IMG/VR virus record: IMGVR_UViG_3300005286_000001
Location: 1-40,149 of that record
From: a virus
Reading direction: 5' to 3' (one strand)
DNA: 40,149 bases
Shown piece after piece: positions 7,835-32,124 of the stretch. The notes beneath the pieces were generated by a model. It did no database searches. It had not been told where the DNA came from and saw nothing but the letters and a program-made list of their open reading frames with translations. The position numbers and the translations under genes are program-made. Positions within the stretch are counted from its first letter, which is position 1, and every line of letters starts with the position of its first letter.

Positions 7835-7845
7835 CGGCAGCTCCC

Positions 7846-7875: not shown

Positions 7876-7935
7876 TTGTCGTTTTGTCCAACGGAAGGTG
7901 ATGAACCGTCGGGGACGGCGTGCTATGGTGCGGAC

Positions 7936-8106
7936 ATGATGATCCGCGATGCATTTCGACGTGTTGCTTTGGCCGTTGCTGGCCTGATCCTCATCGGCAT
8001 GGCACTGTTGTTCGGCCTGGGCCGCTCAGGCGAGCAATGTGTCAGGAACGACCCGATTACAGGGCGCCCGGCGGAAGTAGGCACGTTCTGGTGTCAGGCC
8101 CGGTGA
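7936..8106 (+). CDS. Small single-pass membrane protein, antisense to the late operon
   Basis: MMIRDAFRRVALAVAGLILIGMALLFGLG..., 56 aa. It lies in an otherwise unexplained 415-bp gap in a tightly packed operon. Confidence 0.45.
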   Translation: MMIRDAFRRVALAVAGLILIGMALLFGLGRSGEQCVRNDPITGRPAEVGTFWCQAR

Positions 8107-8414
8107 TCCGCCTTTTCTGGATGGTCGCCCAGACCACCCTGATTTGCTGGTGGACCTACAGCGTCTTTCGCGCCTACCCGAACGAACCGATTACGGTGGT
8201 TGGCAACTTCTTCGTTGCCATCGTCGTTACTGCCTTCCTCACTGCGCTCTTAACGAGGGGCTGGGATCTGCTTCGGCTGGCCGCGTTCAAAGCCCTGTCG
8301 CGAGTTTCCGGCAATAATCGCAAGGCGGATCGCGAGGGCCTGCGCACGGGCGCTGCTGTTGGCCTCTTTCGCAAGCCGGGCGAACAGTCCGACAGCCCGC
8401 GAGTCCGTCAGTAG
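8103..8414 (+). CDS. Small two-TM membrane protein (start GTG 8103 or ATG 8121)
   Basis: GTGA overlap with the preceding ORF. The product is ...MVAQTTLICWWTYSVF...VVGNFFVAIVVTAFLTALL. The 3' 165 nt overlap the end of the minus-strand gene 8250-10325, so its extent is uncertain. Confidence 0.35.
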   Translation: MIRLFWMVAQTTLICWWTYSVFRAYPNEPITVVGNFFVAIVVTAFLTALLTRGWDLLRLAAFKALSRVSGNNRKADREGLRTGAAVGLFRKPGEQSDSPRVRQ

Positions 8415-10325: not shown

Positions 10326-12073
10326 CTGTTCGGATTCGCGGGGTCGCCGCCGCGGAAGACGTAGCCGTCCATAACCGTGCCGGGCTGCGGCGGCGCTACG
10401 CTCCCCTGCTGCGCCCCTCCCGGTTGACCTTGCCCGGGGCCCGCGCCGAGGGCCTGCGCCACTGCCGCCTCATCCGCGGGCGTGAACAGCGGGTTAGCCG
10501 CCGACCATTCCGCCAGCCGGTCATAAAAGCCCTCGTCGAGTCGCTTGTTTTCGCGAATGTAGTCACGGCGGAGCTGGTCCACCTCCACCGACCGCTGCGC
10601 CATGCGCCGCATGTAGTCGATGATGATGCGGTTGGCGCCTTCCGTCCGCTCAAGGCCGGGCACGGACTGCTGCAGGAACTCTCGGTCCTTGTCGGAGAGT
10701 GCGCCCGGCATGCCGGCGCCGCCGCTCGGATTGCGCAGCTCAAGGGCGAACTGGTTGCTGATGGCGTTGATCGCCTCCGGGCCCGACAGGTCGCCGACGT
10801 CAAAGCCCATCGCCTTCGCCATGCGCTTGGCCTGCAGAACGAGGTTCGCGCCCGCGCCGGTATAGACGTTCGGATCGCCCAGAATGCCTTCCATACGCGA
10901 GAGCACCGCGACCTTGCGACGGCCGTCTGCCGCGCCGTCGATGATCTCCTTGTTGAGCTGGGCGAACTGCTTGCCCATCTCCTCGTCGTATTTTGTCTCG
11001 CCCTTCCCGACGTTGACGTTCGTGGCCCCGGCCCGGCGAAGCTCCTGCTGATAGTCCATGAACGTGCCGGCATAACCCTGCTGCCGGGCGAACAGGTAGC
11101 CGCGCATGGCATCGGTCGGCTTGCCCTGATCCAGCCGTTCCTTGAGCGCCATGTCGATGAGGTCTTGCCTCTCCTTCGGCAGGCCTCGCATGCCCCGGAG
11201 CTGCTGGAGCTGTTCCGTGGAGAGGTTCGGGAGGATCGTCGGGCCCGTCTGGACCGGTGCAGCGCCTTGCGGGATGGCGAAGCCCTGCGCCGGCGTACCG
11301 CCCGCCATCGGGATATCGGCCTGTGCGACCTGCGTGCGGGGAGCCGCCCCAGTAAACCCGCGCTGAATACGGCTCGCAGCCTCGGCAACCGTCAGGGGAC
11401 GATCCCCATCGAAGAACATGGTACGGTTGGCCGCGACAGCGCGCGGATCGACCACATCCGCCGCCAGAACGGTCGGATCCTGCTGCAGGGCGGACAGGAA
11501 ATTGCGGGCCCCACCCGCGCCGAGGAAGTGCGCCGTGTAGAGGTTGGCGTCAGACGGGGTGATACCGGCCGCCTGAAGCGCCTTGCGGTTGTCTTCCGTG
11601 AACGCCTGGATTGCCCGTTCCTGCTGAGCGGGGTCCGTGCGGCCGTCCGGCGTCAGTCCGAGCTGCGGGTATTTCCGGGCGAGATCCGCCCACGTCCCGG
11701 CGGTGAACTGATAACGCCCCGTGGCGGTCGAATTCGGGTTACGAGCCGCGTCATTGCCGCCGCTCTCACGGGAGCGGAGCGTGCTGAGGTAGCCCCCGCC
11801 AAGGTCGCCAAGCGAAAGCGGCTGCGCAGACGTTGCGCCCCCGCCCATCATGGACTGCCATGCCTGATCGGCGGCGGCCTGCGACTGCATGTTCTGGCCG
11901 AGCGACGCCAACTCCATCTGCGTCTTCTGCTTGCCCAGATCGGCAAGCTCGCGCTTCAACTGCTGGTCCTGCGCCTGATTGAAGGCGCCGAAGAACGCGT
12001 TGGGCAGGTTCGCCAGCATCTGGTCGATGCGGGGATACTGGGTCGTGAGATCGTGGATGACCAACCGCGCCAT
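10307..12073 (-). CDS. Internal virion / ejection protein with a lytic transglycosylase domain
   Basis: 588 aa. The motif RESGGNDAARNPNSTATGRYQFTAGTW resembles the lysozyme-like E-S-G...G-x-Y-Q-F...T-W signature. Confidence 0.75.
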   Translation of the reverse strand: MARLVIHDLTTQYPRIDQMLANLPNAFFGAFNQAQDQQLKRELADLGKQKTQMELASLGQNMQSQAAADQAWQSMMGGGATSAQPLSLGDLGGGYLSTLRSRESGGNDAARNPNSTATGRYQFTAGTWADLARKYPQLGLTPDGRTDPAQQERAIQAFTEDNRKALQAAGITPSDANLYTAHFLGAGGARNFLSALQQDPTVLAADVVDPRAVAANRTMFFDGDRPLTVAEAASRIQRGFTGAAPRTQVAQADIPMAGGTPAQGFAIPQGAAPVQTGPTILPNLSTEQLQQLRGMRGLPKERQDLIDMALKERLDQGKPTDAMRGYLFARQQGYAGTFMDYQQELRRAGATNVNVGKGETKYDEEMGKQFAQLNKEIIDGAADGRRKVAVLSRMEGILGDPNVYTGAGANLVLQAKRMAKAMGFDVGDLSGPEAINAISNQFALELRNPSGGAGMPGALSDKDREFLQQSVPGLERTEGANRIIIDYMRRMAQRSVEVDQLRRDYIRENKRLDEGFYDRLAEWSAANPLFTPADEAAVAQALGAGPGQGQPGGAQQGSVAPPQPGTVMDGYVFRGGDPANPNSWERVR

Positions 12074-12086
12074 CGATCAACCCCCA

Positions 12087-12743
12087 TCAACCAAGAAGTC
12101 TGGTGAAGAAACCGCCGGAGCCGAGGCCCGAGCCGAGCAGGTTCAGGCCGCCCGTGATGGCCCCCAGCATGTTCGCCTGGTTCTGCGCCTTCGCGGCATC
12201 CCCGGCCTTCAGTGCGCCCACGACAAGGCCGAGCTTGTCCTTGTCGTTCTGGTCCATGATGCCGGCGCGAGACCCGAAATAGCCCATATCGAGGTCGGCC
12301 AAAGACCCGAGCGAACCAGCCTGCCCCGAGATGCCCTGCGAATAGAGCTGCATCAGCGGCAGGGCCGCCTGACGCTCCTGATTGAGGGTCTGAGAGGCAA
12401 GGCCGCTCGCGAACTTGATCGCATCGGCATCGGCATTGCCCGAGTTGAGCATGCCGCCGGCCGCACGGCGCCGGTTGAGCGCCTGCAAACCCTGATCCAT
12501 GGCAAACTGATAGCCGGCCGTGCCCTCAAGCGCCGACTGGTCGCCTGACAGGAGGGACAGATACCGGTCAAGACCGGCCTGCCCCTGCGTCGTCATCCCG
12601 CCGAACAGGTCTTTTGCCTGCCCTAGGTAGCCCTGAGCGCCGGTGTAGCCCTTCTCCAGCTCGCCGAGGACGCGCTTTTCGCTGTCGTCGAGGGCAGTCT
12701 GCCCATACATGGCGGCATAGCGCGCGCCCTTCGCACTGGCCAT
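12087..12743 (-). CDS. Virion protein (ejection or needle-associated, function unknown)
   Basis: 218 aa. AAGGAGG lies upstream of the ATG at 12743. The C-terminus is glycine-rich. Confidence 0.6.
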   Translation of the reverse strand: MASAKGARYAAMYGQTALDDSEKRVLGELEKGYTGAQGYLGQAKDLFGGMTTQGQAGLDRYLSLLSGDQSALEGTAGYQFAMDQGLQALNRRRAAGGMLNSGNADADAIKFASGLASQTLNQERQAALPLMQLYSQGISGQAGSLGSLADLDMGYFGSRAGIMDQNDKDKLGLVVGALKAGDAAKAQNQANMLGAITGGLNLLGSGLGSGGFFTRLLG

Positions 12744-12755
12744 GTGTGCGCCTCC

Positions 12756-13025
12756 TTAGCTCAGAAGAACGGATTTCAGGGAGCCGCCGACGTTCGCGTA
12801 GAGCCGCGTTTCGGCTGTGCTCGTGTCGTGCCAGACCCGGCTTTCCCCCTCGGGGATGTCGTCCGCGGTCGGCGTGGTGTTGCTCGTGACCGTCTGTCGG
12901 GCTGCCACGTCCTCACGAAGGACGTTCTCTACGGTCTTGAACCATGCGTACCAGACCGTTGCGAAGACGCCGTTCGGCGCCGCCGGTACGTTCGCGCCGG
13001 GCGTGGGAAGCGGTTTCTTCGCCAT
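12756..13025 (-). CDS. Small virion-module protein
   Basis: 89-aa ORF, starting 3 nt after the upstream stop. Confidence 0.55.
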   Translation of the reverse strand: MAKKPLPTPGANVPAAPNGVFATVWYAWFKTVENVLREDVAARQTVTSNTTPTADDIPEGESRVWHDTSTAETRLYANVGGSLKSVLLS

Positions 13026-13028
13026 GGA

Positions 13029-14444
13029 TCAGCCCCGCACTTCCGGGGTCAGCTCGCCGCCAAACAGCGAGAACGGCACGGGGTCCGACACGTCCACGCG
13101 GATCTGCATGCCGCGGTTGCTCATCAGGCCAAGCCGATTGACCTGCACCTTGCGGCGGTATTCGCCCTGCCGCCCGATCTCTCGCAGGACGGGAAAGCCG
13201 AAGCGCACTCCGCCGTCCTTGGACCACGAGATGGAGCACCGCGGCTTCGTCTGGATAGGATCGGTGCCCGGCGCCATGCCGACACCCGCCAGAATGTCGA
13301 GATCGAGACGGGGAACAGCGGCCCTTTGCGGGAACGGACTCACCGTGGCTGAGACAACCGTCGCCGTCAGAGGGTCGTTGCCCTCCATGTGATAGTCGGG
13401 GTCGATCTCGTAGAGCGTGCCCGAGGCCACATCCCCGGCCATCCAGCGGTCAAACGCCTTCAGCGAGCCGGCGCACCGCCACGTCTGCATCAGGTGCGAC
13501 TTGCGCTCGAACCACTCGCCCGTGCTGAGGTCATAGCACCACGTCCAGTCCGGCGAGGTCATCGTCCAGATGGCGTGCCCCTCATGCATGTAGACAGAAC
13601 AGCGGATGGTGGACTTGTCCGCCAGGGCCTCGATGGCCTTCGCGACTGAGGGCGTCGAGATGGCCTGCTGCGTATAGCCCTGCAGCATGTAGACAACACC
13701 GTCGTCGCCCACGTCGATCAGAGTGTTGGACCAGCCGTCCTCGTCGCCCGCAATGGCCTGCTGTCCAGCGATGCCGCGCGGGATCGTGTCGAGATACGAG
13801 AACGGAAACCCGACCTCGTTGTTGGGATCGACACGCCACACCTCGATGGTCTGCGGGCCGCACGCGAACAGGTCGCCGCCGAGTGCGATCGGCCTCAACA
13901 GACCGTCGGGCTTGCTCTCGGCGAACGCCGTATCGAGCGTGTTGATGGCCGTCGAATTCAGGTCCGTCGTGCGCATACGGCCGTCGCCGTAGGTGAACAC
14001 GAAATACCCGCGCAGGAAGGTCACCGCATTGGGCGATCCAACGTCCGGGTCGGAATAGCTCTGAGGCGCCCCGTTCGTCGTCAGCTCGTAGGCGGTGTTC
14101 TCCGCCACGCATACGATATCGGGCGTCGGCGTCTTGTTGTTCCGGGCGAAGAAGACCGGCCCCGAGCCCGGCAGCGAGCCGAGCGGCGTCGCCGTGTAGA
14201 TGCCACCAGCATGAGTGACCGCGAACAGCCAGTCCTCAAGGGCGACGAGCCACGTTCCATTGACGTAGATGCTGCCGCGGTAGCCGGAAAAGCCATCAAT
14301 CACGACGGCCTCGCGCAGGCCCGGCACGCGGAAGCGCCGAATACGACCGTCGGGCAGCTTCTCGCTCATGGTGTTGATGAGCCTGCCCCCGCTCTCCGCG
14401 AAGAGGCCCGGTGCGGACGACGTGGGGAAGGGAATTTGGGTCAC
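13029..14444 (-). CDS. P22 gp10-like packaged-DNA stabilisation / tail hub protein
   Basis: 471 aa; P22 gp10 is about the same size. GTG start preceded by AGGAGGGG. Position and collinear patches resemble gp10 as I remember it (unverified). Confidence 0.6.
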   Translation of the reverse strand: MTQIPFPTSSAPGLFAESGGRLINTMSEKLPDGRIRRFRVPGLREAVVIDGFSGYRGSIYVNGTWLVALEDWLFAVTHAGGIYTATPLGSLPGSGPVFFARNNKTPTPDIVCVAENTAYELTTNGAPQSYSDPDVGSPNAVTFLRGYFVFTYGDGRMRTTDLNSTAINTLDTAFAESKPDGLLRPIALGGDLFACGPQTIEVWRVDPNNEVGFPFSYLDTIPRGIAGQQAIAGDEDGWSNTLIDVGDDGVVYMLQGYTQQAISTPSVAKAIEALADKSTIRCSVYMHEGHAIWTMTSPDWTWCYDLSTGEWFERKSHLMQTWRCAGSLKAFDRWMAGDVASGTLYEIDPDYHMEGNDPLTATVVSATVSPFPQRAAVPRLDLDILAGVGMAPGTDPIQTKPRCSISWSKDGGVRFGFPVLREIGRQGEYRRKVQVNRLGLMSNRGMQIRVDVSDPVPFSLFGGELTPEVRG

Positions 14445-14453
14445 GATCCCCTC

Positions 14454-14969
14454 CTAGGCCGCTCTGGCATACGGTCCATAGAGCCCCGCCATGTGCCGCA
14501 TGTAGGCTCCCGATGCTTCTTCCTTGGTGTCGTAGCGCCCCAAATTGCGGAACCTCCCGCCTGTCCACGCGAACGCGAGCCATTTCCCGCTGGTGCGGTC
14601 CCACGTCACGCCTTTCCGGCCACTGGTGTTGTGTCGCGGGGTGCGGATGTTTGCTGCGTTTTGCCCCCTCGATGCCAACCGCAGATTCGAGAACCTGTTG
14701 TCGGACGGGTCGCAATTGGCGTGGTCGATTTCGTACTCAGGCCACTCGCCCGTCATGTAGAACCATGCGAGGCGATGCGCAAAATACCTTCGATAGTTCA
14801 AACGGATGGATAGCCGACCGGCGGCCATGGTTCCTGCTTTGGCGCCAGCAAAACGGCTGTTCCACGTGGCATTCATCGCTGGATTGGGCCGCCAGCGGAA
14901 TTCCCCCGTCTCAGGGTCGTAGCTCAGGCGCTCCACTAGCTCGGCGTGGGTGAAGTCAGGCTTACGCAT
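14454..14969 (-). CDS. HNH homing endonuclease with an AP2-type DNA-binding domain
   Basis: EIDHANCDPSDNRFSNLRLASRGQNAAN is an HNH_3-type motif. GVTWDRTSGKWLAFAWTGGRFRNLGRYDTKEEA is AP2-like. The start forms an ATGA overlap with the adaptor gene stop. Confidence 0.8.
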   Translation of the reverse strand: MRKPDFTHAELVERLSYDPETGEFRWRPNPAMNATWNSRFAGAKAGTMAAGRLSIRLNYRRYFAHRLAWFYMTGEWPEYEIDHANCDPSDNRFSNLRLASRGQNAANIRTPRHNTSGRKGVTWDRTSGKWLAFAWTGGRFRNLGRYDTKEEASGAYMRHMAGLYGPYARAA

Positions 14970-15307
14970 CAGAAATACGCCACCTTGACGGGCTCGAAGG
15001 TCGTGTAGCTCGCCTGGGCGCGGCGCATGTCCAGCTCGGCCGCGAGGCGCGCGTCTTCGGACCTCGGCAACCCGAAGGACGGAGCGGCCTCGTTCGCGAG
15101 CATGCGGGCCAGCGGCAGGAAAACAGCGTCGTCGATGGCCTCGACGTTCGGCACATAGAGGATGCGCGAGCGCGCCAGCTGATTGAGAAGCGGCGCGACA
15201 ACAGCGTCGACAGCGTCGCTATCCTCGACCTCGACGGGCTGCCCCGCCTCTGCGAGGCCGAGAACGCTAAGCGCCTGCTCGATGAGTTGCGCCTTCGTCT
15301 TGGGCAT
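14969..15307 (-). CDS. Head-completion / head-tail adaptor protein (by position)
   Basis: ORF 14969-15565 trimmed to the ATG at 15307, which is preceded by AGGAGG. It encodes 112 aa directly after the capsid gene. Confidence 0.5.
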   Translation of the reverse strand: MPKTKAQLIEQALSVLGLAEAGQPVEVEDSDAVDAVVAPLLNQLARSRILYVPNVEAIDDAVFLPLARMLANEAAPSFGLPRSEDARLAAELDMRRAQASYTTFEPVKVAYF

Positions 15308-15328
15308 GCTCACCTCCTGAATGGCGAA

Positions 15329-15348
15329 GGGCGGCCCGAAGACCGCCC
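15329..15348 (-). terminator. GC-rich stem-loop after the capsid gene (attenuator or stabiliser)
   Basis: In the minus sense, GGGCGG-TCTTCGGG-CCGCCC followed by TTCGCCATT. The T-run is weak. Confidence 0.35.
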
Positions 15349-15360
15349 CTCTCCTTCTCG

Positions 15361-16506
15361 TTACGCCGTGGCAGGCGCGGCGTTGAACACGGTGACGATG
15401 CCCCACTGCACAAGGTCGCTCGTCGTAGTGTCCTTGAAGAACACCTTGCCGACGCCATAGGCCATGTCGATGCCGACGCCCTTCTTGAACTGGTAGTCGG
15501 TTTCGTCGAGCTTCGTCGGCTCGGGCATCTGGCCCCACACGAGGCCCAGCGCCGAGCGGCCGCACATGAACGACATGGATACGTCAACGCCGCTGTCGCC
15601 CGCTCCGGCCACGAGAGCGAGCTTGTCGATCTCGGGAACCTTGCGGATGATGACGTTGTCGTAGAGCAGGTCGCCCTCGCGGAAGATCGGGTTGTTCCGC
15701 CAGGACGAGCCCTCACGGGGGCGCGCATCCTTGTTGGCCTGGTAGATCTCGGGATCGGCCCAGGCATCGCGGTAGGCGCGCGAGCCCACGAACATGACGA
15801 AGCGCTCGTAGCCGTCGTCGGTGCTCAGGGGCTCGATCTTCGGGTCAGCGTCTTCCGCCTTCTCGCGGGCGAGACGGACGGTCGCGGCGCTGAAGCGGTC
15901 GTCGGTCGCCGTCAGGCTCGCAAGGGCCGTGGCATGCGTGGCGTTGTAGTTGCTGAACGCGTTGCCGTACAGAATGCGGTCCTGGTTGGCCTGGTTCCAC
16001 GTGTTGCGCTGCGTGGCGTTGGCGGCCGAGTACAGGATGCCATTCACGCGCTGGCCGTTGGGGGAGCCGAGGCCGGCCGGCGGGGATTCGCTCGGGAGCG
16101 ACGCCATCGCCAGAACCAGTTCGTCACGCTGCAGCGACTTGCCCCAGTCGGAGAGAAGCGGCTGCGCCTGCGCGAACAGGTCAAACGAGCCCTTCTTGAT
16201 CTCCGCCTTGGTGGCCGTGACAGCGTTGCGACCCCAGTCGAGCCAGAACCGGCAACCGTAGTTGTCGATGGCCTCCTCGTTGCCCGTCAGCGTCCCCGAG
16301 CCGATGGCCGTGTTGCGGAGGGCCTTGATCAGGGGAACGTTGATCTGGTCGCCGCCGAACTTGCCGGTTTCGAGGAACGTGCGGATGACGGCGGTGCCAT
16401 CGTTGCCCATGTAGGGCGAGAACATGTTGCCGCGAACGAACTCGCGGATGATGTTGTTGCGGAAAATAATCCCGCGGTTGTTGGCCTGAATGGTAGAGAC
16501 AGCCAT
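15361..16506 (-). CDS. Major capsid protein
   Basis: ORF trimmed to the ATG at 16506, preceded by GAGGA. It encodes 381 aa and follows the scaffold gene. The N-terminus MAVSTIQANNRGIIFRNN...FSPYMG resembles podophage HK97-fold capsid families (from memory). Confidence 0.8.
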   Translation of the reverse strand: MAVSTIQANNRGIIFRNNIIREFVRGNMFSPYMGNDGTAVIRTFLETGKFGGDQINVPLIKALRNTAIGSGTLTGNEEAIDNYGCRFWLDWGRNAVTATKAEIKKGSFDLFAQAQPLLSDWGKSLQRDELVLAMASLPSESPPAGLGSPNGQRVNGILYSAANATQRNTWNQANQDRILYGNAFSNYNATHATALASLTATDDRFSAATVRLAREKAEDADPKIEPLSTDDGYERFVMFVGSRAYRDAWADPEIYQANKDARPREGSSWRNNPIFREGDLLYDNVIIRKVPEIDKLALVAGAGDSGVDVSMSFMCGRSALGLVWGQMPEPTKLDETDYQFKKGVGIDMAYGVGKVFFKDTTTSDLVQWGIVTVFNAAPATA

Positions 16507-16676
16507 TGTCTTGTCCTCAAGACACGACAAAGCGCCCGCTCAGGGCTGCCCTGTCGGGTGTGATCGGTCTGCCCGGTCCTCAGCCGGGCGCTCGGGTTCG
16601 GATTGGCCGTCTCGTGGCCCTACGTGCGGTTGCGCCGTATCGTGGCGCGGACGAGAGTGTCGCGGCGGCCTTGTGA

Positions 16677-17177
16677 TCAGGCGGCGGCGACGGGGCCGAC
16701 AGCGGCGCTCGTGGCGCTCGTGCTGCCGATATCGTTGGTGGCGGTCACGGTGACGGTGATCATGGCGTTCTCGTCCGCCGGATCGAGCGTGTACGTCGAG
16801 GACGTTGCCCCGGCGATATCCGCCCCGTCACGTTTCCACTGATAGGCGTAGCCGGACGGCGAGCCGGTCCATGTGCCGGTGCTCGCGGTCAGCTGCTGCC
16901 CCACGGTCGGCGTCCCGGTGATCTCGGGAGGCGCCGTGTTGGCGGGCGGCGGCGAAGGCTGGTTCGATCCCTGCGGATAGCGAGCCCAGAACACATCGCC
17001 GGCCCGAACGGTCTTCGTGGTGAAGTACGTGCCGCCGGCATCAGCGGTCGCGACGCCATCGACGATGGCGAGCGCCTGACCCGGTACAAGGTCCTCGCCG
17101 GCCCGGACGCGCACATGTACGGCATCGCCGTCGGTGATCCGTTCCTCGTCGGTGAGCGCGTAGTTCCAGACCGGCAT
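16677..17177 (-). CDS. Capsid decoration-type protein with a C-terminal Ig-like domain
   Basis: The C-terminal half PEITGTPTVGQQLTASTGTWTGSPSGYAYQWKRDGADIAGATSSTYTL...ITVTVTATN is a typical Ig-like surface repeat. Confidence 0.65.
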   Translation of the reverse strand: MPVWNYALTDEERITDGDAVHVRVRAGEDLVPGQALAIVDGVATADAGGTYFTTKTVRAGDVFWARYPQGSNQPSPPPANTAPPEITGTPTVGQQLTASTGTWTGSPSGYAYQWKRDGADIAGATSSTYTLDPADENAMITVTVTATNDIGSTSATSAAVGPVAAA

Positions 17178-17192
17178 TGTCGTCTCCGATGG

Positions 17193-18077
17193 TTATCGGC
17201 GCCCGGCATTCAGGGCGGCGTTGAACACCTCTGCCGGGTCTTCCGGCTCATCCACTTCCGTGCCAGCTCGCGGAGTGCGGTTGAGCGACGGGAGGGACGT
17301 GACATTGCCGCCCTTCGCCGTCGTCGTGGTGGCGACGGGGGCAGCCTGTGCGCGCGCGGCCTCAAGGGCCTTGGCGAGAAAGTCCGGGTCCTTCAGAAGC
17401 GCTTCTTTCTGGCGCTCCATCCAGCCCTGCGGGTCATTCCCGACCTCGCGCTCGAATTCGTACTTGCGGTGCCACCGCACGATGTCGCCGAACGGATCGG
17501 CCGCCTCACGCAGCTGCTTGAGCACGACGTCGCGGTTGAGCCCCCCGGTCGCAATCGCCTGCTGCAGGGCCGCAAACGCCTTGTCCACGGTCTCCTGCCC
17601 GAATTCCTTGATCGCGTACTGACGCGACCAGTATTCGGCGACGGCGCGGGCTCGCTCCTCGGCCACCTGAGCGGCCTTCTGGACCGGGTCGAGCAGCTCC
17701 TGCGCCTTGTGCTTCAGGAATGCATCCGGGTCCTCGAAAATGTCAGGGGCCTGCTTCTGGGCCTCCTGCCTTTCGCGCTCGATCTGCTCCTTCCACGCGC
17801 GAAGATCGGCGGCCTCCTGCTCAAGCCGGCGCTTCTCTTCGGCTACCTCTCGCAGCCGCCACGACGGCACGAAGGCCTCATTTTCGGGCTTTTTCACACC
17901 CTCCGAAGGAGTCTCGGCATTCGGAGACGGGTGACTATGGCCCGGATCTTCGTTTCCGGGAGAGGACGCGGCGGCACTGGGTCCACCGGCGTCAACAACG
18001 GGCTCATTCACCACTCCCGGCATCTCGCCGCCGGACAGCGCTGCGTCAAAGACTTCCTGTTCGCCGCCAATCGACAT
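17193..18077 (-). CDS. Scaffolding protein
   Basis: 294 aa, charged with coiled-coil character. It lies between the portal and capsid genes. Confidence 0.65.
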   Translation of the reverse strand: MSIGGEQEVFDAALSGGEMPGVVNEPVVDAGGPSAAASSPGNEDPGHSHPSPNAETPSEGVKKPENEAFVPSWRLREVAEEKRRLEQEAADLRAWKEQIERERQEAQKQAPDIFEDPDAFLKHKAQELLDPVQKAAQVAEERARAVAEYWSRQYAIKEFGQETVDKAFAALQQAIATGGLNRDVVLKQLREAADPFGDIVRWHRKYEFEREVGNDPQGWMERQKEALLKDPDFLAKALEAARAQAAPVATTTTAKGGNVTSLPSLNRTPRAGTEVDEPEDPAEVFNAALNAGRR

Positions 18078-18159
18078 GGTTACGTCTCACTTTCGCGGAG
18101 TTGCGTGATTTCGCCCCGTATCGCCGGGCAAGCGTCCATATGCGCCGTGTCGTGGTCGC

Positions 18160-20076
18160 CTACGAACCGATTGCGGCCGCCTGGGAAGCCGCCATTTGCG
18201 CATTGGTGCGCGCCGCCTGCATGGCAATGGCGGCGTCGGCCTTCATGCGGTCGATCTCCATCTGATGGACGGCCTTCTCGCGCTCGATCTGCATGTCGTT
18301 GGCGGCCTTTTCCCGCGCCAACTGCATGTCGTTCTCGGCCTTGATGCGCGAGGCCTCGGCATTGATCGCCGCCCGCTCCCGCTCAAGCTGGATATCGGCC
18401 TGCTTGGCCTGCATATCCATCTGCAACTTGACCTGCTCGAGCTCCATCTTGGCCTGCTGTGCCAGAGCCTCCGGGTTCGGCTGCTGCTGTGCCTGTTCGA
18501 GGATCTCCTCGATCTGCTTCTTCATGCTGCCGGGGAGATTTGCCATCTTGAGGATGGCAACAGGCGGAATCGGCATGCCGGCGCCGGCCAACTGCACGAG
18601 CGTGTCGAACACGTCCTGCATCAGCGTCACCGTGTCCGGCCCCTCGTCGATGATGATATCCACGTCGAGAGAGCCGAGCGGGTTCTGCAGCGTGGGGACG
18701 CCCGTGCTCATGTCGATGCGGTTAACGGGCAGGAAGTCCGGGATTCCCTCGTTGTCCGTCACCCGGATCCAGCGCTCCGCCGTCCAGTAGCGCTGGATGT
18801 TGTTCCAGACGGCCCGATAGACGCGCATCTTCCAGTCGCGGAAGGCGATCAGGAACGGCCCGATCTTGCCAAGGGCGGCCTGCTGCAGGAGCTGGATGGC
18901 GCGGCCCGAAAGGTCCTTGGGGGCACCGCCATCGACAGCCACGGGCGGGGAGAGCCCGCGACGGTCCATCTGGCTCTTGGCCTCCTGCAACATCTCAAGG
19001 TTGCCGGCAGCCTGAGCGGCGTTGTTCTCCTCCCGGACATTCGCGCCGGGGGGCAGGAGGACAATGCCGGTCGGTCTGTTGATGCGCTGCGCCAGATCCT
19101 GTTCGTTCTCGACCGATCCCGCCTCGATATAGACGCGCTTGGCATTGAGCGCGTGCAGACCGAGCGATCGGCGGGAATTGATCTCGTCCTGGATCGGCTT
19201 CAGGTTGCGAACGAAGCCGTAACGGTCGCCTTCCCAGTCCACGTGCGCTGAGAAGACGATGTACCGCGAGATGGTGCGGCCCTTCTCGTCATAGAAAGGC
19301 GAGTTGCCTTCATCGAGAAGCAGATTCCCCGTGTAGAACGCGAATTTCCACTCGCCGCCCCGGATGTACCAGTGCTCGACGAGGCGGATCTTCCGCTCGT
19401 TCGTGATGACCCAGAGGTTCTGGCGCTGGTTGAGGTTCCATTCCTCCTGCCCGAAGCCCTGAGTGCCGAGCGCCTCGAGGGCCTCGGCATGGTCGGGGAA
19501 CATCGACTTCGCCACGTCGATATCGACCCACTTCGAGACGCCCATGTAGCGGGCATCCGAAAAGTCCTGCTCGATGGAGCGCGGGTCGTAAAAGAACGTC
19601 TCGGCATCGACGGTCTTGAGCTGGATATCCGGGTCGCCGTTATCGCCCTCGACGAAAGACATCTCCACGCCAGCGACGGCATCGATGCCCGCCGCTCGCG
19701 CAACACGAGGCGTCAGGTACTGCCACTGAACCGTGTCCATCGCGTAGCGCAGGACGCTTGTCGCAACCTCGGCGCCGTCCTCGTGAGCCGGCGTGCGTGG
19801 GTAGGCTTTCGGATCCTGCCTCAGGCGCTCGACGGTGCCGACAATGCCGTCGATCTGCGGCTGGACCTCGTTGTAGACGACCGCCGGCTGCCCACGGTCC
19901 CGCAGCACCTGCAATTGCTCTGGCGTGAGCTGGTCGCCGTCATAGTACCGGCGCGCAACCTCGGTTTCCTCACGCTCACGGGCCTTGTTCGTCCAGTAAT
20001 CCTGATGGCGGCGGATGAGGGTGCTGAGGGAGGCGAAGTTGCCGTCCCTCTCATCCGTGGTCGTGAGTTGCGCCAT
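18160..20076 (-). CDS. Portal protein
   Basis: 638 aa directly after terL; the start overlaps the terL stop (TAATG). It has a long C-terminal coiled coil like a P22-type portal barrel. Confidence 0.85.
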   Translation of the reverse strand: MAQLTTTDERDGNFASLSTLIRRHQDYWTNKAREREETEVARRYYDGDQLTPEQLQVLRDRGQPAVVYNEVQPQIDGIVGTVERLRQDPKAYPRTPAHEDGAEVATSVLRYAMDTVQWQYLTPRVARAAGIDAVAGVEMSFVEGDNGDPDIQLKTVDAETFFYDPRSIEQDFSDARYMGVSKWVDIDVAKSMFPDHAEALEALGTQGFGQEEWNLNQRQNLWVITNERKIRLVEHWYIRGGEWKFAFYTGNLLLDEGNSPFYDEKGRTISRYIVFSAHVDWEGDRYGFVRNLKPIQDEINSRRSLGLHALNAKRVYIEAGSVENEQDLAQRINRPTGIVLLPPGANVREENNAAQAAGNLEMLQEAKSQMDRRGLSPPVAVDGGAPKDLSGRAIQLLQQAALGKIGPFLIAFRDWKMRVYRAVWNNIQRYWTAERWIRVTDNEGIPDFLPVNRIDMSTGVPTLQNPLGSLDVDIIIDEGPDTVTLMQDVFDTLVQLAGAGMPIPPVAILKMANLPGSMKKQIEEILEQAQQQPNPEALAQQAKMELEQVKLQMDMQAKQADIQLERERAAINAEASRIKAENDMQLAREKAANDMQIEREKAVHQMEIDRMKADAAIAMQAARTNAQMAASQAAAIGS

Positions 20077-21527
20077 TAGATCACCGTTGCTGCGGTTGAC
20101 GGCCTACGGTTGATGCGGGAGAACCCGGTCTGCGGTTGCGGGCGGCTCGTGACCTGGCGCACCCACGGGCGCGACATGCAGGCGTACCGCCACTCATCCG
20201 CGGCGTGGTCTTCCATGTCCGTGTCAAGGTCTTCGGGCCTGTCCTGATCGTGCTGCAGCATCGGGATCGTCCGAATGCTGTCGGTGCACGTCGAGAAACA
20301 GACGATCATCGGCCTATCTTCGGCCTCACCAACGAGCCGAGAACGCATCGCATCCCAGCCGCCCATCGCGCCGCGCTGCGACACGCGCTTGTTGTCGGCC
20401 CCGCGGAAGAACAACTTTCCGCCCGAGCCCTTCGTGATCCGCTCGGCAATCGAAGGGCCGCCATCCTCGGCAAAAGCCGCCGGGTCGAGAACGCCATACG
20501 AGAGCTTCGGATCCGACGCAGCTCGCGAGGCCAACCCCTCGCCAACCGCCTCGGCGTGCAACTTCAGTCCCACGTTCGGCTTGCCGGCAACTGCGCCGTA
20601 CCACTCGCGATAGCGAACGAGACAACCCCGCGGCAGGATGATCCCGCTTTCCGTCGTGTAGTCGTCCGATACGACCGCCCACCAACCGAAGCTGAAGGGC
20701 TTGGCAGAGCCCCAGTCACCGGACAGGAACCGCATCCAGTCGCCCGGCACCTCGAATGGCCGTATGACGTGGCGCTTCTCACTCCACTCCGCGAAGAACG
20801 CTCCTTCGATGGCGCTCCAGTCGCCCTCTAGCCACGCCCTGATCAGCTCGGCTCCGCCCACCATGCGCAGGCGGCTGATGTATCCAGGGTCATTCGCCAT
20901 CAGGATCGCGTTGTCCGTGATCCGTGACGGGATGACCGCCATCTTGTGCAATGTGCCGTCGTCGAGCGTCCGCGTGACGACCTGCGGTCCCCTTGGGAAG
21001 GGATGCAGCCTGTAGCGCTCCCGCAACCATGCTTGGCCTGGGCCGCCGGGGTTGGCGGTAAGGATCATCTGGACGGGCACGCCATGGGCCGAGCGCAGCA
21101 CACCGAACAGCTTGTCGATAGCGCGGCTGTCGGGATACTGCCCCGCCTCTTCAACCCACACGTCGGTGACGTTGCGCCCCTGCCATTCGTCGGCATCCTT
21201 GGGCTTGTCGAGGTATCTAAACGAGACCCGACCGCCATTCGGCATGCGCCAGATCAGCTTGCTCTCGTTGTAGACCCCGCCGAGAGGCCCGTAGATCTCC
21301 TTGCTGCGCTCTATCGCGTCTTCCGACGACACCGTCGTGCGCCGGAACATGATCGCGTTGAAGTGTTTGCCGTAGCGCCGTTCCTTCAGCGCCCATTTGC
21401 CGAGGACGCCGTCCGTCTTTCCGCCGCCGCGAGCGCCCCCGAAAAAGATCTCCGATAGCGGGCAGTCAACGAGCGCCTTCTGTGGGCCCGGCTGAGGCGC
21501 CCACAGTATGCTCGGCTTCCCATTCAT
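20076..21527 (-). CDS. terL: Terminase large subunit
   Basis: 483 aa. Walker A is GGARGGGKT and a Walker B-like motif is DVWVEEAG. A C-terminal nuclease-like region is present. Confidence 0.9.
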   Translation of the reverse strand: MNGKPSILWAPQPGPQKALVDCPLSEIFFGGARGGGKTDGVLGKWALKERRYGKHFNAIMFRRTTVSSEDAIERSKEIYGPLGGVYNESKLIWRMPNGGRVSFRYLDKPKDADEWQGRNVTDVWVEEAGQYPDSRAIDKLFGVLRSAHGVPVQMILTANPGGPGQAWLRERYRLHPFPRGPQVVTRTLDDGTLHKMAVIPSRITDNAILMANDPGYISRLRMVGGAELIRAWLEGDWSAIEGAFFAEWSEKRHVIRPFEVPGDWMRFLSGDWGSAKPFSFGWWAVVSDDYTTESGIILPRGCLVRYREWYGAVAGKPNVGLKLHAEAVGEGLASRAASDPKLSYGVLDPAAFAEDGGPSIAERITKGSGGKLFFRGADNKRVSQRGAMGGWDAMRSRLVGEAEDRPMIVCFSTCTDSIRTIPMLQHDQDRPEDLDTDMEDHAADEWRYACMSRPWVRQVTSRPQPQTGFSRINRRPSTAATVI

Positions 21528-21816
21528 CTGCGCTCATCGGGTTGTCGCTCACGATCCAGTGCCGGTTTTCGGTCTGAGCGTTGACATCGACCGCCGCAAG
21601 CTTCGGGGCAAAGAACGGTGCCGCGGCCTTCGCCGCATCGACGCGGTCCGCGAAGCTGGGCACGTGTCCGTCGATGGTTTCGCCGCGGCTGATAGCCAGA
21701 AGCAGCTCATGCGGCAGCATGCCGACCTTGGCCGCTTCCTCTCGCGCCTTCGTTGCCATCCTGTTGACTGAGCCCTTCGGCCTACCGGCTCCGGGCCGCT
21801 TGCCGCCGCGTGCCAT
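21466..21816 (-). CDS. terS: Terminase small subunit (by position and basic N-terminus)
   Basis: 116 aa starting MARGGKRPGAGRPKG. It overlaps terL by 62 nt. Confidence 0.5.
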   Translation of the reverse strand: MARGGKRPGAGRPKGSVNRMATKAREEAAKVGMLPHELLLAISRGETIDGHVPSFADRVDAAKAAAPFFAPKLAAVDVNAQTENRHWIVSDNPMSADEWEAEHTVGASAGPTEGAR

Positions 21817-21861
21817 TGATTTCTCGATATTTATTCAAAGGGGCTCACAACCCCACCTCAT

Positions 21862-22080
21862 TCAGCGTGACGCGGCCGGAACGAGCTTGTAGCGCTGGCC
21901 GTTGATGACGATGCCGTCAGTGAACATCGCGAACTCGCGGACGCCGTCCGCCTCCATGGCGCACGGACACTTCGTGTCGCCGGGGCGCGGGCCGGTGCAG
22001 AAGCACGCCTTCCACCGCTCGGGCTCCGTCGTCATGACGTGCGGATGGTCTCCGGCGGCACTCCCCCAGATCACGTTCAT
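21862..22080 (-). CDS. Small Cys-rich hypothetical protein
   Basis: 72-aa ORF containing CFCTGPRPGDTKCPC. Confidence 0.5.
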   Translation of the reverse strand: MNVIWGSAAGDHPHVMTTEPERWKACFCTGPRPGDTKCPCAMEADGVREFAMFTDGIVINGQRYKLVPAASR

Positions 22081-22283
22081 AGCCCAACCTCGTTCAATGT
22101 GATGTTCGGCCTCTCCCCCGTGTCCGGCTTGGCCGCCTCGAACTTCGCCATGTCCTCACGGATCGCGTCGATCACGTCAGCGTCGTCAAACCACTCGGGA
22201 GCCGTGATGCCGAGAATGGCCCCGTCTCTCTCTCTCCGTAGGCGGATGCGCCAGGGATGAGAGGGACGGGGTTTGGCGGGCAT
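22077..22283 (-). CDS. Hypothetical protein
   Basis: ORF 22077-22445 trimmed to the ATG at 22283, 1 nt after the upstream stop. It forms an ATGA overlap with the next gene. Confidence 0.45.
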   Translation of the reverse strand: MPAKPRPSHPWRIRLRRERDGAILGITAPEWFDDADVIDAIREDMAKFEAAKPDTGERPNITLNEVGL

Positions 22284-22284
22284 G

Positions 22285-22554
22285 TCAGTTTGACGGCGGC
22301 AACATTTGCCCGAGCGGCGGGACGAAGCTGGCAAAACCAGCCCACCCATGGTCGCCACCGTTGGCCTCGTATACGGCGTGCGCTTCCGGCAGATACTGCT
22401 CGTACCATTCCCGGTCATCCGAGGTTCCCATACCGAAGAACGCATTCCCGTCGAGCATGGCGAGCGTTTCGGCGATAGGGCGAAGCTTGGCCTTTTCGGC
22501 GTCCGTAAAGTCGGTCTTCCAACCGCCCTTCGGCTCCGGGATGTCGTAGCTCAT
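22285..22554 (-). CDS. Hypothetical protein
   Basis: ORF trimmed to the ATG at 22554 (MSYDIPEPKGGW...), which overlaps the stop of the tiny TM ORF by 1 nt. Confidence 0.45.
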   Translation of the reverse strand: MSYDIPEPKGGWKTDFTDAEKAKLRPIAETLAMLDGNAFFGMGTSDDREWYEQYLPEAHAVYEANGGDHGWAGFASFVPPLGQMLPPSN

Positions 22555-22652
22555 CAGAACACCATCGCTCCCGTAGCCACGCCTGCGCCGAAGATCACAA
22601 CCACCGCGCCAATGAGAAGCGCGATAGCAAGACGGCGGAGGACTGCGGCCAT
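22554..22652 (-). CDS. 32-aa single-TM peptide, first ORF of the late operon
   Basis: MAAVLRRLAIALLIGAVVVIFGAGVATGAMVF. GGAG lies 5 nt upstream of the ATG. Confidence 0.35.
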   Translation of the reverse strand: MAAVLRRLAIALLIGAVVVIFGAGVATGAMVF

Positions 22653-22968
22653 GCCGTGGCTCCAAGTGAGAAGCGCCGCCCCGGAGAACCGAGACGGCGC
22701 TAAAGCGAAACCGCTTGGGGCAGCCCCGCTAGATTGACGCAGGGTGAGGCCGGAGCCCCAACGTGCTAGGTGACGCACTCCCTGCTATCACGAGAGGCCG
22801 GGCGCTACTCCGGCTGGCTGGGCACGGCTCATGCCTGAATCCGCAATCCGGACCCACGCGGCACGGCCAACGCCACAGTCGCCGTTTCCATGGTCGGCCG
22901 GTTTGCTATGCTGGCGGTTGCGACTGCCGCCTCGATAGGCCGTTTTGCGTGTCTGCTTTCCACGCCGC

Positions 22969-23370
22969 TCTCGTGAACTGTCTCAGCGCGGGCCGGGCGT
23001 CCCCGGCGTGGGCGGGCTCGATAGTTTAAGCAGCAGAGGCGCATGAAGCGCCATCCGTCGGATCCCACTGCGACAGCTCCTACACGCCGCCGCGCTGAAC
23101 TCTGAAACTGTTGTGGCAGCCGACTTTCGGCGACCGCCCCGTCTGTTACGCCACCGGCCTATAACCGGTCTTGTGAACAGCTCCTGTCAGCGCGGGGCGG
23201 CATTTGGTGGCGGCCAGGAACAGCCCCTAGCCCTCCCACCGGGAGGCCCGGCTGATGCCGCTTGGCCTCCGCCCACGGCCCTCGTGTCAGAGACCGCGCT
23301 GAACTCGTTGCCCGTCTACGGGCGCAAATCTTGCTGATACCAAATCATCGCATTTCCGGTTTAACCGGTC
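22969..23370. repeat. Two diverged tandem modules of about 200 bp with collinear conserved islands and a conserved 9-bp closing helix (candidate structured RNA or protein-binding array)
   Basis: Island pairs: TYGTGAAC at 22971 and 23171. TCAGCGCGGG at 22983 and 23187. GTGG(G)CGG at 23008 and 23207. CCCAC at 23064 and 23272. CCGCGCTGAACTC at 23090 and 23294. TAACCGGTC at 23162 and 23362. Confidence 0.6.
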
Positions 23371-23932
23371 AAGCGATTTCTTCCGCTTCTTCGTCATCGA
23401 TCCAATGAGGAAAGCCCCACAGGTCAGCTAAACGATCCGTTGCATCACGGAACATCTCCGTCGCAGCGGCAATCGCCTGCGCCTTGTTTCCCCAACCGAG
23501 GATTTTGCGTCCGGCCTCCTCAAGCGTAGCGTCTTCACAGGCGATATGCTCGATCAGCCGCGACATCCGCAAGCCGATGTGGCGCGCCGCCTGCCGATAG
23601 CGCTGGCGGTATTCGGCCTGGCGCTCGCTCTGGGCCATCAGGCGCATGCCCGTGTTGTCCGGCGCATAGATGCGGTTGGGATCCACACCATTCGGCCCCG
23701 GCTCGAGCCCCGCGTGGTACCAGTAGAGGCGGTATCGCCTGCCCGCTTCGGCTTGTCTTTCGGTGATGACGCCTCTCTTGCGGATGCGGTCGATCATCCC
23801 GTCTCGCATGGTCACGCGACCGTCTCCGCCGACGACGTAGAACTCTCCAGCCTTCGCCATCCGCTCGGGCGTCGGCTGCATCGGCTTGTCGATGGGAGTC
23901 GTAGCCCTCGTCTTCTTCTTCGGTCGCGCCAT
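23369..23932 (-). CDS. Putative DNA-binding regulator (late-gene activator candidate by position)
   Basis: 187 aa. The C-terminal segment ATLEEAGRKILGWGNKAQAIAAATEMFRDATDRL looks like a sigma-70 region-4 / LuxR-type HTH. It is the last gene before the 716-bp late leader. Confidence 0.35.
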   Translation of the reverse strand: MARPKKKTRATTPIDKPMQPTPERMAKAGEFYVVGGDGRVTMRDGMIDRIRKRGVITERQAEAGRRYRLYWYHAGLEPGPNGVDPNRIYAPDNTGMRLMAQSERQAEYRQRYRQAARHIGLRMSRLIEHIACEDATLEEAGRKILGWGNKAQAIAAATEMFRDATDRLADLWGFPHWIDDEEAEEIA

Positions 23933-29233: not shown

Positions 29234-29440
29234 TCATTGAACGCCCCTGTGTTTCCAGAAGTCGTTCGGGGTGATGGCGTTGTTGGTGCCCTCGGCGATA
29301 CGCCGCATGAGGTCGAGCGACGGCACCCTTCTGCCATGCTCGATCCGGGACAGTGTCGCGACCGAGCACCCTACACGAGCGGAGAGGTCGGACAGTGTGA
29401 CGCCGAACCTCTCACGGTATGTTCGAAGGGGATGTTTCAT
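29234..29440 (-). CDS. XRE-family HTH regulator (68 aa, Cro/CI-type)
   Basis: RERFGVTLSDLSARVGCSVATLSRIEHGRRVPS is a classic HTH_3 motif. AGGAGGGG SD is present. Confidence 0.8.
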   Translation of the reverse strand: MKHPLRTYRERFGVTLSDLSARVGCSVATLSRIEHGRRVPSLDLMRRIAEGTNNAITPNDFWKHRGVQ

Positions 29441-29452
29441 ATCCCCTCCTGT

Positions 29453-29531
29453 TTACCACTAGGGTATACACGCCGTCAATACGGCGCGAGAGACGATTAC
29501 CCCTAGGGCCGAGGAAAGTTACCTCTAGCGG
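29453..29531 (+). promoter_or_regulatory. Three direct operator-like repeats TTACC-N-CTAG-S-GG in the divergent promoter region
   Basis: TTACCACTAGGGTA at 29453-29466, TTACCCCTAGGG at 29497-29508, TTACCTCTAGCGG at 29519-29531. Confidence 0.55.
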
Positions 29532-29538
29532 CGATAAA

Positions 29539-29883
29539 ATGGGAACCATGCCAATCAGAATCGGACATGGCCCTGGCAGGCGCCGACGCATCTTCCTTCG
29601 TGAGTGGCGGGAGTACCGCAATCTCACGCAGGAGCAACTTGCCGACCGCCTGGAGACGACGGCGGCTACAATCTCCCGTATCGAGACCGGAAACCGGGAT
29701 TATACCGGTGCCTTCCTGGAGGCCGCCGCGGACGCCCTGCAGTGCGAGTTGAAGGATCTCCTCATGCGCAATCCCCTGCTTGAGGAGGAGGACCCCGCCG
29801 ACATGCTGCGCTCGTTGCCCCCGGACGACCGGCGCCAGGCCATCGACTTCCTGCACTATCTCCGGGACCGGAAGGCGGGGTGA
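29539..29883 (+). CDS. XRE-family HTH regulator (114 aa; prophage repressor candidate)
   Basis: ORF trimmed to the ATG at 29539; a second ATG lies at 29548. LREWREYRNLTQEQLADRLETTAATISRIETGNR is an HTH_3 motif. No SD is present, and TAAAAT at 29535-29540 overlaps the first ATG, so the mRNA may be leaderless. Confidence 0.75.
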   Translation: MGTMPIRIGHGPGRRRRIFLREWREYRNLTQEQLADRLETTAATISRIETGNRDYTGAFLEAAADALQCELKDLLMRNPLLEEEDPADMLRSLPPDDRRQAIDFLHYLRDRKAG

Positions 29884-31329: not shown

Positions 31330-31799
31330 GCAAGCACGTGAAGGTGAAGCCGCTGGAGTGGGTGGCGGCTGACGAAGACGAAGAGGACTACGTCTCCGCT
31401 TTTTCTGAAATAGGCGCCTACAGCATTGAACGGCTGTCCGCTGGCAGTTGGGAGCTAACGGCAGAGCTCCCTTCTGGAGGCGAGTGCTCTTGGTACGTCA
31501 CCATCGAGGCCGCCAAAGCTGCCGCCCAAGCGGATTACGAACGCCGCATCCTCTCCGCCCTAGAGCCCTCCCCCGCCTTCGAGGCGATGGTGGAGGCGTT
31601 GGAGGACGGACGCGTTATCGCTGCGCTCATGCGGGTTCAGCAACAGCTAGATGACCACATCTTCGAACGCGAGAATGAAATCCTGCGGGATGAAGAGCCC
31701 TACCCATTCGAAGACGAGCTTACAGTAGGTATCGACGATTTGTTGCCCGTCTCGCGCGTGATCCGCGCCGCCCTCGCCCTAGCAAGGGGAGAGCGGTGA
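31326..31799 (+). CDS. Hypothetical protein with a VKPLEW-type domain
   Basis: 157 aa. It shares VKPLEWV and a downstream pattern with the product of 37026-37502. Confidence 0.6.
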   Translation: MSKHVKVKPLEWVAADEDEEDYVSAFSEIGAYSIERLSAGSWELTAELPSGGECSWYVTIEAAKAAAQADYERRILSALEPSPAFEAMVEALEDGRVIAALMRVQQQLDDHIFERENEILRDEEPYPFEDELTVGIDDLLPVSRVIRAALALARGER

Positions 31800-31800
31800 G

Positions 31801-32124
31801 ATGGCGAACTGGCAGAACGTCATTCGGCTGCAGCCCGAATGGGGGCAAGCGAAGTCCGGTGAGATTTCGGTCGCCTCCATGGCCGCCGTAATCGCCAAGA
31901 AGCTTCGCGCCCTCTCCAAAAGTGGCCGTCACCTCGACGATCACAGAGAGGAATTGGAAGACCTGATCGACGAGTTCGAAGACCTGTCGAGGGATCCGAT
32001 GGCCGTCGATGACGATCTCGATGGCCTGATGGGGCAACTCTACGACTGGGGCGACCGCCGGCTCGATAACGACTGGAACGGCAAGAAGCTGTGCTGGATC
32101 GACACGATTAGCGGGAGGCTCTGA
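31801..32124 (+). CDS. Hypothetical acidic protein
   Basis: 107-aa ORF. Confidence 0.55.
   Translation: MANWQNVIRLQPEWGQAKSGEISVASMAAVIAKKLRALSKSGRHLDDHREELEDLIDEFEDLSRDPMAVDDDLDGLMGQLYDWGDRRLDNDWNGKKLCWIDTISGRL

Follow-up and report, generated by a model that had tools for sequence, protein, structure and literature searches.

A modular late-operon leader beside a DUF6456-family gene in a P22-like prophage, a possible phage counterpart of terGTA

To our knowledge, GafZ is known only from gene transfer agents. It corresponds in Caulobacter to the C-terminal part of GafA, and it acts as a processive antiterminator, recruited by an inverted repeat that lies between the -35 and -10 elements of its single target promoter (PMC11150451). 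Homologues of GafA are annotated as DUF6456 proteins (PMC9638019; PMC9765227). The terminator that GafZ bypasses is terGTA, which consists of three 150-bp GC-rich repeats with inverted repeats (PMC11150451). Expression was abolished when terGTA was placed after an unrelated strong promoter. After the GafZ-dependent promoter there was partial read-through, only with GafZ (PMC11150451).

The window analysed here is a stretch of 40,149 nucleotides of viral DNA (IMG/VR record IMGVR_UViG_3300005286_000001). It is a prophage with 64% GC, and the genes around the leader under study are on the minus strand. The prophage appears to be a P22-like temperate phage of an alphaproteobacterium. The following features set the frame of the locus.

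29419-29883, plus strand: CI-like helix-turn-helix repressor gene, divergent from the early operon, marking the prophage immunity region
Upstream of the leader, minus strand: early genes, including those for an HNH protein, a helicase, and an SSB-like protein
23369-23932, minus strand: 187-aa gene of the DUF6456 (GafA/GafZ) family, assigned by Pfam and synteny
23344-23372, minus strand: putative late promoter, with -35 TTGACC (23372-23367), a 17-nt spacer, and extended -10 TGcGATGAT (23349-23344)
23310-23330, minus strand: early-transcribed conserved element GAUUUGCGC, overlapping the hairpin GCCCGUAGACGGGC
22662-22701, minus strand: terminator-type hairpin with a 13-bp stem (arms 22701-22689 and 22684-22672) and the tail UUCUCACUU
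22663-22660, minus strand: ribosome-binding site GGAG, just 3' of the leader hairpin
22652-22554, minus strand: first late ORF, a 32-aa hydrophobic peptide by translation (MAAVLRRLAIALLIGAVVVIFGAGVATGAMVF)
After the 716-bp gap, minus strand: genes for the 32-aa membrane peptide, a small terminase-like protein, the large terminase, and a P22-type portal
7853-7877, minus strand: predicted strong intrinsic terminator in the late operon, given for context

Related loci are referred to by L numbers. Genome matches were found in Bradyrhizobium, Afipia, and Xanthobacteraceae. A terminator in L001 weakly matches BjrC68, a Bradyrhizobiaceae small RNA (24 bits, E = 0.018). Together, these matches give a hint of the host group. 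ARAGORN called a 98-nt tRNA-Cys at 31793-31890 of the window (plus strand, anticodon at position 38), against an Rfam scan that found no tRNA in the window. What was called is likely a degenerate or spurious tRNA.

A gap of 716 bp separates the stop of the 187-aa gene (23369) from the ATG at 22652. An earlier sequence-only reading had measured it so, and had described the region as a non-coding leader of the late operon in which paired arms are kept and interiors diverge. This description is borne out. ORFs across the modules were considered as possible coding sequence and rejected, since replacement of the modules in relatives leaves these ORFs unconserved. Transcription is from the minus strand, and the untranslated leader is about 690 nt long with 66% GC. 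The same 32-aa ORF follows the leader in L003, L005, L022, L028, and L037.

The 187-aa protein is predicted to be a Q-like antiterminator of the DUF6456 family. The window protein matches the Pfam DUF6456 profile with E = 3e-4 and 21.2 bits, which is under the cut-off of 26.3. DUF6456 (PF20057) is present in eight of nine close family members, with a best E of 1.7e-9, and in many of 150 profile matches. The gene is found at the Q position, being the last early gene before the late promoter. The order of replication genes, DUF6456 gene, terminase, and P22-type portal is also seen in L022, L076, L079, and L082. Two phage contigs, L076 and L080, encode a separate DnaA-C-like protein, which suggests that DUF6456 is the GafZ half of GafA and not the GafY half. 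A GafY-like partner was not found in the window. Foldseek returned no solved structure like the protein model, and neither a Q21-like nor a sigma region-4-like fold was seen. The link to antiterminators is therefore made through the Pfam family alone. For GafZ, too, no similar solved structure was reported by Tran and Le (PMC11150451). A sequence profile search of solved structures gave no relevant match for the 187-aa protein, and no NCBIfam family matched. GenBank phage records matched neither the leader at the DNA level nor the 187-aa protein in tblastn. The GafZ family also sits in apparently bona fide temperate phages, and the deposited phage genomes include none of these phages.

The putative late promoter overlaps the end of the gene, with the TGA stop of the DUF6456 gene inside the -35 hexamer. 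It is the only sigma-70-type match in the 20 kb from 3500 to 23400, and it is conserved in this position behind the gene in 13 related loci. A palindrome, CCGGTTTAACCGG (23356-23368), lies between and overlaps the -35 and -10 elements. GGTTWAACC is kept in L025, L026, and L076, whose proteins are only 43-47% identical. By analogy with the ZBE and QBE, the palindrome is a likely candidate for the loading element of the DUF6456 protein.

Thirteen promoters located 3' of DUF6456 genes in phage-like contigs and prophages were compared. The motif GAWTTGCGCC is found about 45-50 nt after the -35 element in 12 of them. It always stands just before a hairpin (the window, L025, L026, L058, L072, L074, L076, L079, and L082). 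This motif may serve the antiterminator family as a pause or loading element, in the manner of the -10-like element in Q systems. A scan with the early-transcribed motif gave one extra match, which was due to chance. Where modules are missing (L026, L058, L072, L076, and L082), the hairpin that comes after the motif is clearly an intrinsic terminator. Its counterpart in the module-bearing lineage has lost the U tract, and AACGAG and the modules come after it.

The leader of the window is made up of four closed domains, 88-189 nt in length and 59-73% GC. They are given here in the order of transcription, with the unit names of the sequence-only reading.

23187-23302 (23304 with the GUUCA part), minus strand: module alpha (earlier unit B), 116 nt, 73% GC, with a multi-hairpin interior
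23099-23186, minus strand: spacer domain sigma, 88 nt, closed by GAGCUGUU/AACAGUUUC as taken from the fold
22983-23098 (23100 with the GUUCA part), minus strand: module beta (earlier unit A), 116 nt, 70% GC
22788-22976 (22978 with the GUUCA part), minus strand: module zeta, 189 nt, with GUUCA and then the arms UCACGAGAG/CUCUCGUGA

GUUCA precedes every 5' arm on the minus strand. In alpha, it is followed by the 5' arm UCAGCGCGG (23302-23294), which pairs with the 3' arm CCGCGCUGA (23195-23187). Beta has arms identical to those of alpha and an unrelated interior. On the plus strand, the 9-nt arms read TCAGCGCGG at 22983 and 23187 and CCGCGCTGA at 23090 and 23294, exactly as had been claimed; in each pair the arms are 98 nt apart, and the two pairs are offset by 204. 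The claim of two units holds for these exact arms but overlooked a third module, zeta, and the closed 88-nt spacer. The zeta arms (TCACGAGAG/CTCTCGTGA) are at 22968-22976 and 22788-22796, and a hairpin with the loop AGUAGCG adjoins the 3' arm. The whole window was scanned on both strands for the architecture 'TTCA + 6 nt ... complement + TG'. Four sites were found, three of them head to tail in the leader, and shuffled sequences gave a mean of 0.7 and a maximum of 3.

Alpha is also found in L022, where it has a U.G closing pair, and L005 has a module nearly identical to zeta. The sigma spacer is found 3' of the gamma module in L003 and L004. Sigma also holds a degenerate copy of the promoter palindrome, CCGGCCTATAACCGG (23154-23168), with AAGACC before it. 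This copy could be what remains of a duplicated promoter, or else an additional binding site.

The inner hairpins that had been named are present, GCCGGGCGTCCCCGGC at 22992, GGCGCATGAAGCGCC at 23038, and CCTCCCACCGGGAGG at 23232, and so is the inner pairing GGCGGCAT/ATGCCGCT of unit B (23196/23255). An inner GTGGG/CCCAC pairing had been assigned to both units. It is present in unit A, but unit B has no GTGGG on the plus strand. Six islands had been said to recur at offsets of 199-208. Only four exact islands of at least 6 nt were found, at offsets of 200-204 (GTGAAC, TCAGCGCGGG, CCGCGCTGAACTC, and TAACCGGTC), and shuffles gave a mean of 1.2 and a maximum of 6. The proposed diverged tandem duplication of paralogous units applies to the boundaries, which do repeat, but not to the interiors of the two units, which have no detectable similarity. 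In a global alignment, the alpha and beta interiors gave z = -1.3 against shuffles. Beta is instead akin to zeta (z = 3.8) and to modules of other phages (z = 3.8-4.6). Since alpha and beta are unlike inside, simple decay of a duplication does not account for them. What repeats is the boundaries and not the whole units.

The modules fold with modest z-scores, -2 to -3.7, that are similar on both strands. Fold energies do not tell the strands apart, as both fold about equally well. Neighbouring modules share arms, so alternative pairings are possible, in which the 3' arm of a module pairs with the 5' arm of the next or the first arm pairs with the last. These alternative pairings may matter for folding during transcription. 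A U tract is absent 3' of every module closing helix (examples of the 8 nt that come next are CAGGAGCU, GACAGUUC, and UAGCAGGG). Thus, none of the modules is a canonical intrinsic terminator. The leader transcript is G-rich and not C-rich; it is therefore a poor Rho substrate, and Rho loading is not favoured.

Relatives were found through the 187-aa protein in viral, metagenome, and Logan contigs, with proteins 69-98% identical, and further relatives were found with a 23-nt anchor from the leader start. Eight distinct leaders were obtained: the window, L001, L003, L004/L028 (the same contig), L005, L022, L035, and L037. All of them have the promoter, after which come the hairpin GCCCGUAGACGGGC, AACGAG, and two to five modules with GUUCA. 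With L042 included, which has a single minimal module of 45 nt, the number of modules ranges from one to five. Each module has GUUCA and then a closing helix of 9-10 bp. This helix occurs in four versions, UCAGCGCGG/CCGCGCUGA, UCAGCACUG/CAGUGCUGA, UCAACGCAGC/GCUGCGUUGG, and UCACGAGAG/CUCUCGUGA. Among the interiors there are eight main types and two variants, and each phage combines them in its own way. The number and identity of the modules vary freely among close relatives, and the interiors are interchangeable. Deletions and hybrids have broken at the arms; L003 is cut short at GTTCAGCGC, and L001 carries a hybrid pair of arms.

The ends of 15 distinct modules from the eight leaders were aligned to examine covariation, the check that the sequence-only reading had proposed for related leaders. 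Pairing is kept in 97% of the closing-helix cells of this alignment, and five of the nine closing-helix pairs have changed on both sides, in 26 cells. None of 500 shuffles matched this covariation, and slid controls were only 28-48% paired. The closing helices are under selection for pairing. Wobbles (U.G or G.U) occupy five cells on the sense strand of the late genes, as against one A.C cell, so an RNA of the late-gene strand is modestly favoured. GUUCA precedes all of the modules, and the closing 5'-UCA...UG(A/G)-3' is kept in 14 of the 15. Inside the modules, the only motif shared across types is a short hairpin adjoining the 3' arm. The interior helices have no double changes and no covariation support, because there are too few variants.

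Several of these leaders have features of their own. The L028 leader is about 1170 nt long, and its last module holds an insert of about 400 nt, about 500-900 nt into the leader. The insert contains a string like the 3' end of a tRNA (GTTCGACTCGCTGGCCTGCAACCA), and ARAGORN found no tRNA there. In L035, positions 20-35 of the assembled metagenome contig have N exactly where the first 5' arm differs between two of the helix versions (GTTCANCNCNGCAGNTGACC). Since the Ns are at the positions that distinguish the versions, this suggests that both coexist in the L035 population. In L022, a phage with a 98% identical antiterminator, about 210 additional nt (3598-3815) separate the promoter from the conserved hairpin. 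The stretch ends in a U-rich tract (GCCCCTTTTTCG), and no gene is called there.

All module-bearing leaders with a recovered 3' part end in one or two terminator-type hairpins. In the window, the U-rich tail of this hairpin (UUCUCACUU) is weak and lies just before the ribosome-binding site. Homologous leaders carry strong U tracts, and the corresponding tails are UUUUCUUUU in L037 and UUUCUAUU in L022. The strong terminator GGCCCGGGCUCCUACCCCCGGGCCGUUUUCUUU is present after the modules in L001 (4159-4203) and has equivalents in L037 and L042. Internal terminators had also been placed within the late operon, and they are found at 7877-7853 and 4120-4098 on the minus strand. With the first of these, a predicted strong terminator, processive antitermination would be needed.

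The leader was also compared with known RNAs and with other kinds of repeats. As the sequence-only reading had supposed, no known RNA family fits. At the Rfam gathering threshold there was no match in the window or in five related loci, and in a permissive Rfam scan the best sub-threshold matches in the leader had E of 0.14 or worse. The leaders contain no tRNA or tmRNA. The arm pattern GTTCAGCGCGG-N85-115-CCGCGCTGA gave 16 matches in viral contigs, all by chance in coding DNA, and the junction pattern TGRAACAGTTCACGAGAG gave two extra matches, both by chance. The GTTCA sites do not fit the alphaproteobacterial LexA box (GTTC-N7-GTTC). Integron attC sites were rejected on their GTTRRRY core, on the reversed order of the ends, and on the absence of an integrase. 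Hammerhead and twister ribozymes were rejected as well, with their cores absent and Rfam negative. The units are too long for the repeats of type III toxin-antitoxin systems, and they are not identical.

The modules can tentatively be taken as a transcription barrier, a phage counterpart of terGTA that would be overridden by the DUF6456 antiterminator. This reading is preferred here as a real possibility that falls short of being probable. Transcription would start at the sigma-70-type promoter that overlaps the stop of the DUF6456 gene. The antiterminator would load onto RNA polymerase at the palindrome and the early-transcribed motif. The GC-rich module array, together with the terminator hairpin at the end of the leader, would form the barrier, with termination or attenuation by the modules assumed from terGTA. 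An unmodified polymerase would stop or stall at the array, so the late genes would stay off. A polymerase that carries the antiterminator would read through the array and also through the terminators, both the one in the leader and those within the operon.

It is the terGTA look of the array and its regulatory neighbourhood that lead to this comparison. Both systems have tandem GC-rich units of about 100-200 nt with inverted repeats, 3' of a promoter served by a DUF6456-family protein. In both, the whole array is flanked by complementary arms; terGTA was compared through its description and four primer sites, by which its array runs from ACTCTCCTC to GAGGAGAGT. Viral contigs scanned for one terGTA primer site gave no match. 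The two also differ. terGTA comes after the first gene (gtaT), whereas the modules are in the 5' leader, before the first gene. The terGTA units are direct repeats over their full length, whereas the modules repeat their boundaries only and have unrelated interiors. Terminator activity has been demonstrated for terGTA and is presumed for the modules. Taken as a barrier, the phage leader is a variant of a kind known so far from a single example, terGTA.

The locus also resembles the late units of Q-type antiterminators. Those compared were lambda Q (PR', qut, and tR'), Pseudomonas AlpA, Caulobacter GafZ (ZBE), and Bartonella BrrG, which has an 864-bp leader. They have in common an antiterminator gene directly 5' of a strong late promoter and a binding element between -35 and -10, for which the palindrome is the candidate in the window. 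They also have a conserved early-transcribed element, a leader terminator (in the window, a terminator-type hairpin), and a long late operon with further terminators. In contrast, the protein of this locus is of the DUF6456 type and not of the lambda, 21, or 82 type of Q, the leader is about 690 nt long and modular, as against 194 nt for lambda 6S, and the window yielded no GafY-like partner.

Other explanations of the modules must be weighed against a barrier. Canonical terminators are already present in the leaders, and the modules may therefore be dispensable for a barrier. The rapid exchange of interiors would fit an accessory cargo RNA too, which speaks against a barrier. Such a cargo is unlikely, yet it deserves serious consideration. 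The late promoter would be constitutive in lysogens and would give a stable, multi-domain leader RNA, and the modules, acting in trans, would have the host, rival phages, or defence systems as their targets. There are precedents for this. Lambda PR' fires constitutively in lysogens, the lambda 6S RNA is 194 nt in length, tRNA genes occur after Q, and the StxS small RNA of Shiga-toxin phages is a late-leader RNA. The promoter, with its near-consensus -35 and extended -10, suits this explanation, and the strong terminator after the module array in L001, L042, and L037 means that the product would be a discrete RNA. Between nearly identical flanks, modules are exchanged like cassettes, as is typical of fast-evolving accessory functions. 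L080, a DUF6456 phage, has tRNA-Gln and tRNA-Pro genes in the same region (3922-3996 and 4476-4551), downstream of its DUF6456 gene; by their place after a Q-like gene, the region would be a cargo site for structured RNA genes. The cargo of lambdoid late leaders (tRNA genes, and StxS and 6S from PR') likewise lies between a Q-like gene and the first late gene, but no module is a tRNA or matches an Rfam family. In addition, the short hairpin adjoining the 3' arm is the one interior motif common to the module types, the interior helices are without covariation support, and the modules are found nowhere outside these leaders. It is improbable that the modules form a new class of modular RNA, marked by GUUCA, a covarying closing helix, and exchangeable interiors, that is transcribed constitutively from the late promoter in the lysogen, acts in trans (for example as decoys or regulators in phage-host or phage-phage conflicts), and is shuffled by recombination at the arms. 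There is a similarly small chance that the structure has no sequence-specific function. The leader would then be kept locally folded for nuclease resistance, against misfolding at the ribosome-binding site, or for the pacing of polymerase, and the shared arms would promote unequal recombination that shuffles the cassettes. This agrees with conservation that is limited to the closing helices around unrelated interiors, with folding z-scores that are modest and alike on both strands, and with the L003 and L001 breakpoints at the arms. It does not agree with the nine compensatory double changes that leave pairing intact, the GUUCA that never varies, and the closing UCA...UG(A/G) of 14 of the 15 modules, and relatives manage with leaders of about 60 nt.

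The put RNA of phage HK022 has two stem-loops and is roughly 70 nt. A cis-acting RNA of this kind, which itself makes RNA polymerase resistant to termination, had been the lead hypothesis of the sequence-only reading, and it is now very unlikely. Like the modules, the put RNA and the nut sites of lambda are structured RNAs close to where a phage operon starts, and all of them are linked to terminator read-through. This operon has internal terminators, and its two or more stem-closed domains are superficially like the two stem-loops of put. However, the modules are unlike put and nut in size (98-230 nt versus roughly 70 nt for put), number (one to five), and conservation, which does not extend to the interiors. 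The conserved pair of stem-loops that acts in cis with no protein factor, by which the put type is defined, was not found. A dedicated gene for a protein antiterminator of the DUF6456/GafZ family is directly upstream, and the modules are dispensable in relatives, some of which share the protein family and promoter and have only the promoter, the motif, and an intrinsic terminator. Moreover, terGTA, the studied analogue, is a terminator that is overcome by an antiterminator (PMC11150451). The element does belong to an antitermination circuit; the circuit was named rightly, but the role of the RNA was probably inverted. An element at the DNA level has the slightest probability of all. It could be a protein-binding array, for the regulator or as a terminase pac site, or a replication origin, with the arms as half-sites or cruciforms. 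The arms are indeed exact 9-mers in four copies, the region lies between the replication and packaging modules, and the fold energies of the two strands are similar. The binding array for the adjacent regulator that had been suggested is unlikely, as the promoter palindrome is the likely element and the arms occur in four sequences within one leader family. They differ in sequence yet stay complementary, and no single DNA-binding protein would tolerate such variation. The wobble pairs favour a sense-strand RNA, copy number and order differ among close relatives, and the region, with 66% GC, has no iterons and no AT-rich tract.

The locus puts the GafZ protein family in what look like genuine P22-like temperate phages. 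This provides a plausible phage ancestry for a regulator of gene transfer agents. The leaders, with zero or one to five modules, are a natural series in which repeat-type terminators can be tested, and the covariation indicates that the conserved property is RNA pairing and not the sequence of the repeat. If the modules act in trans, they would represent a new family of phage RNA.
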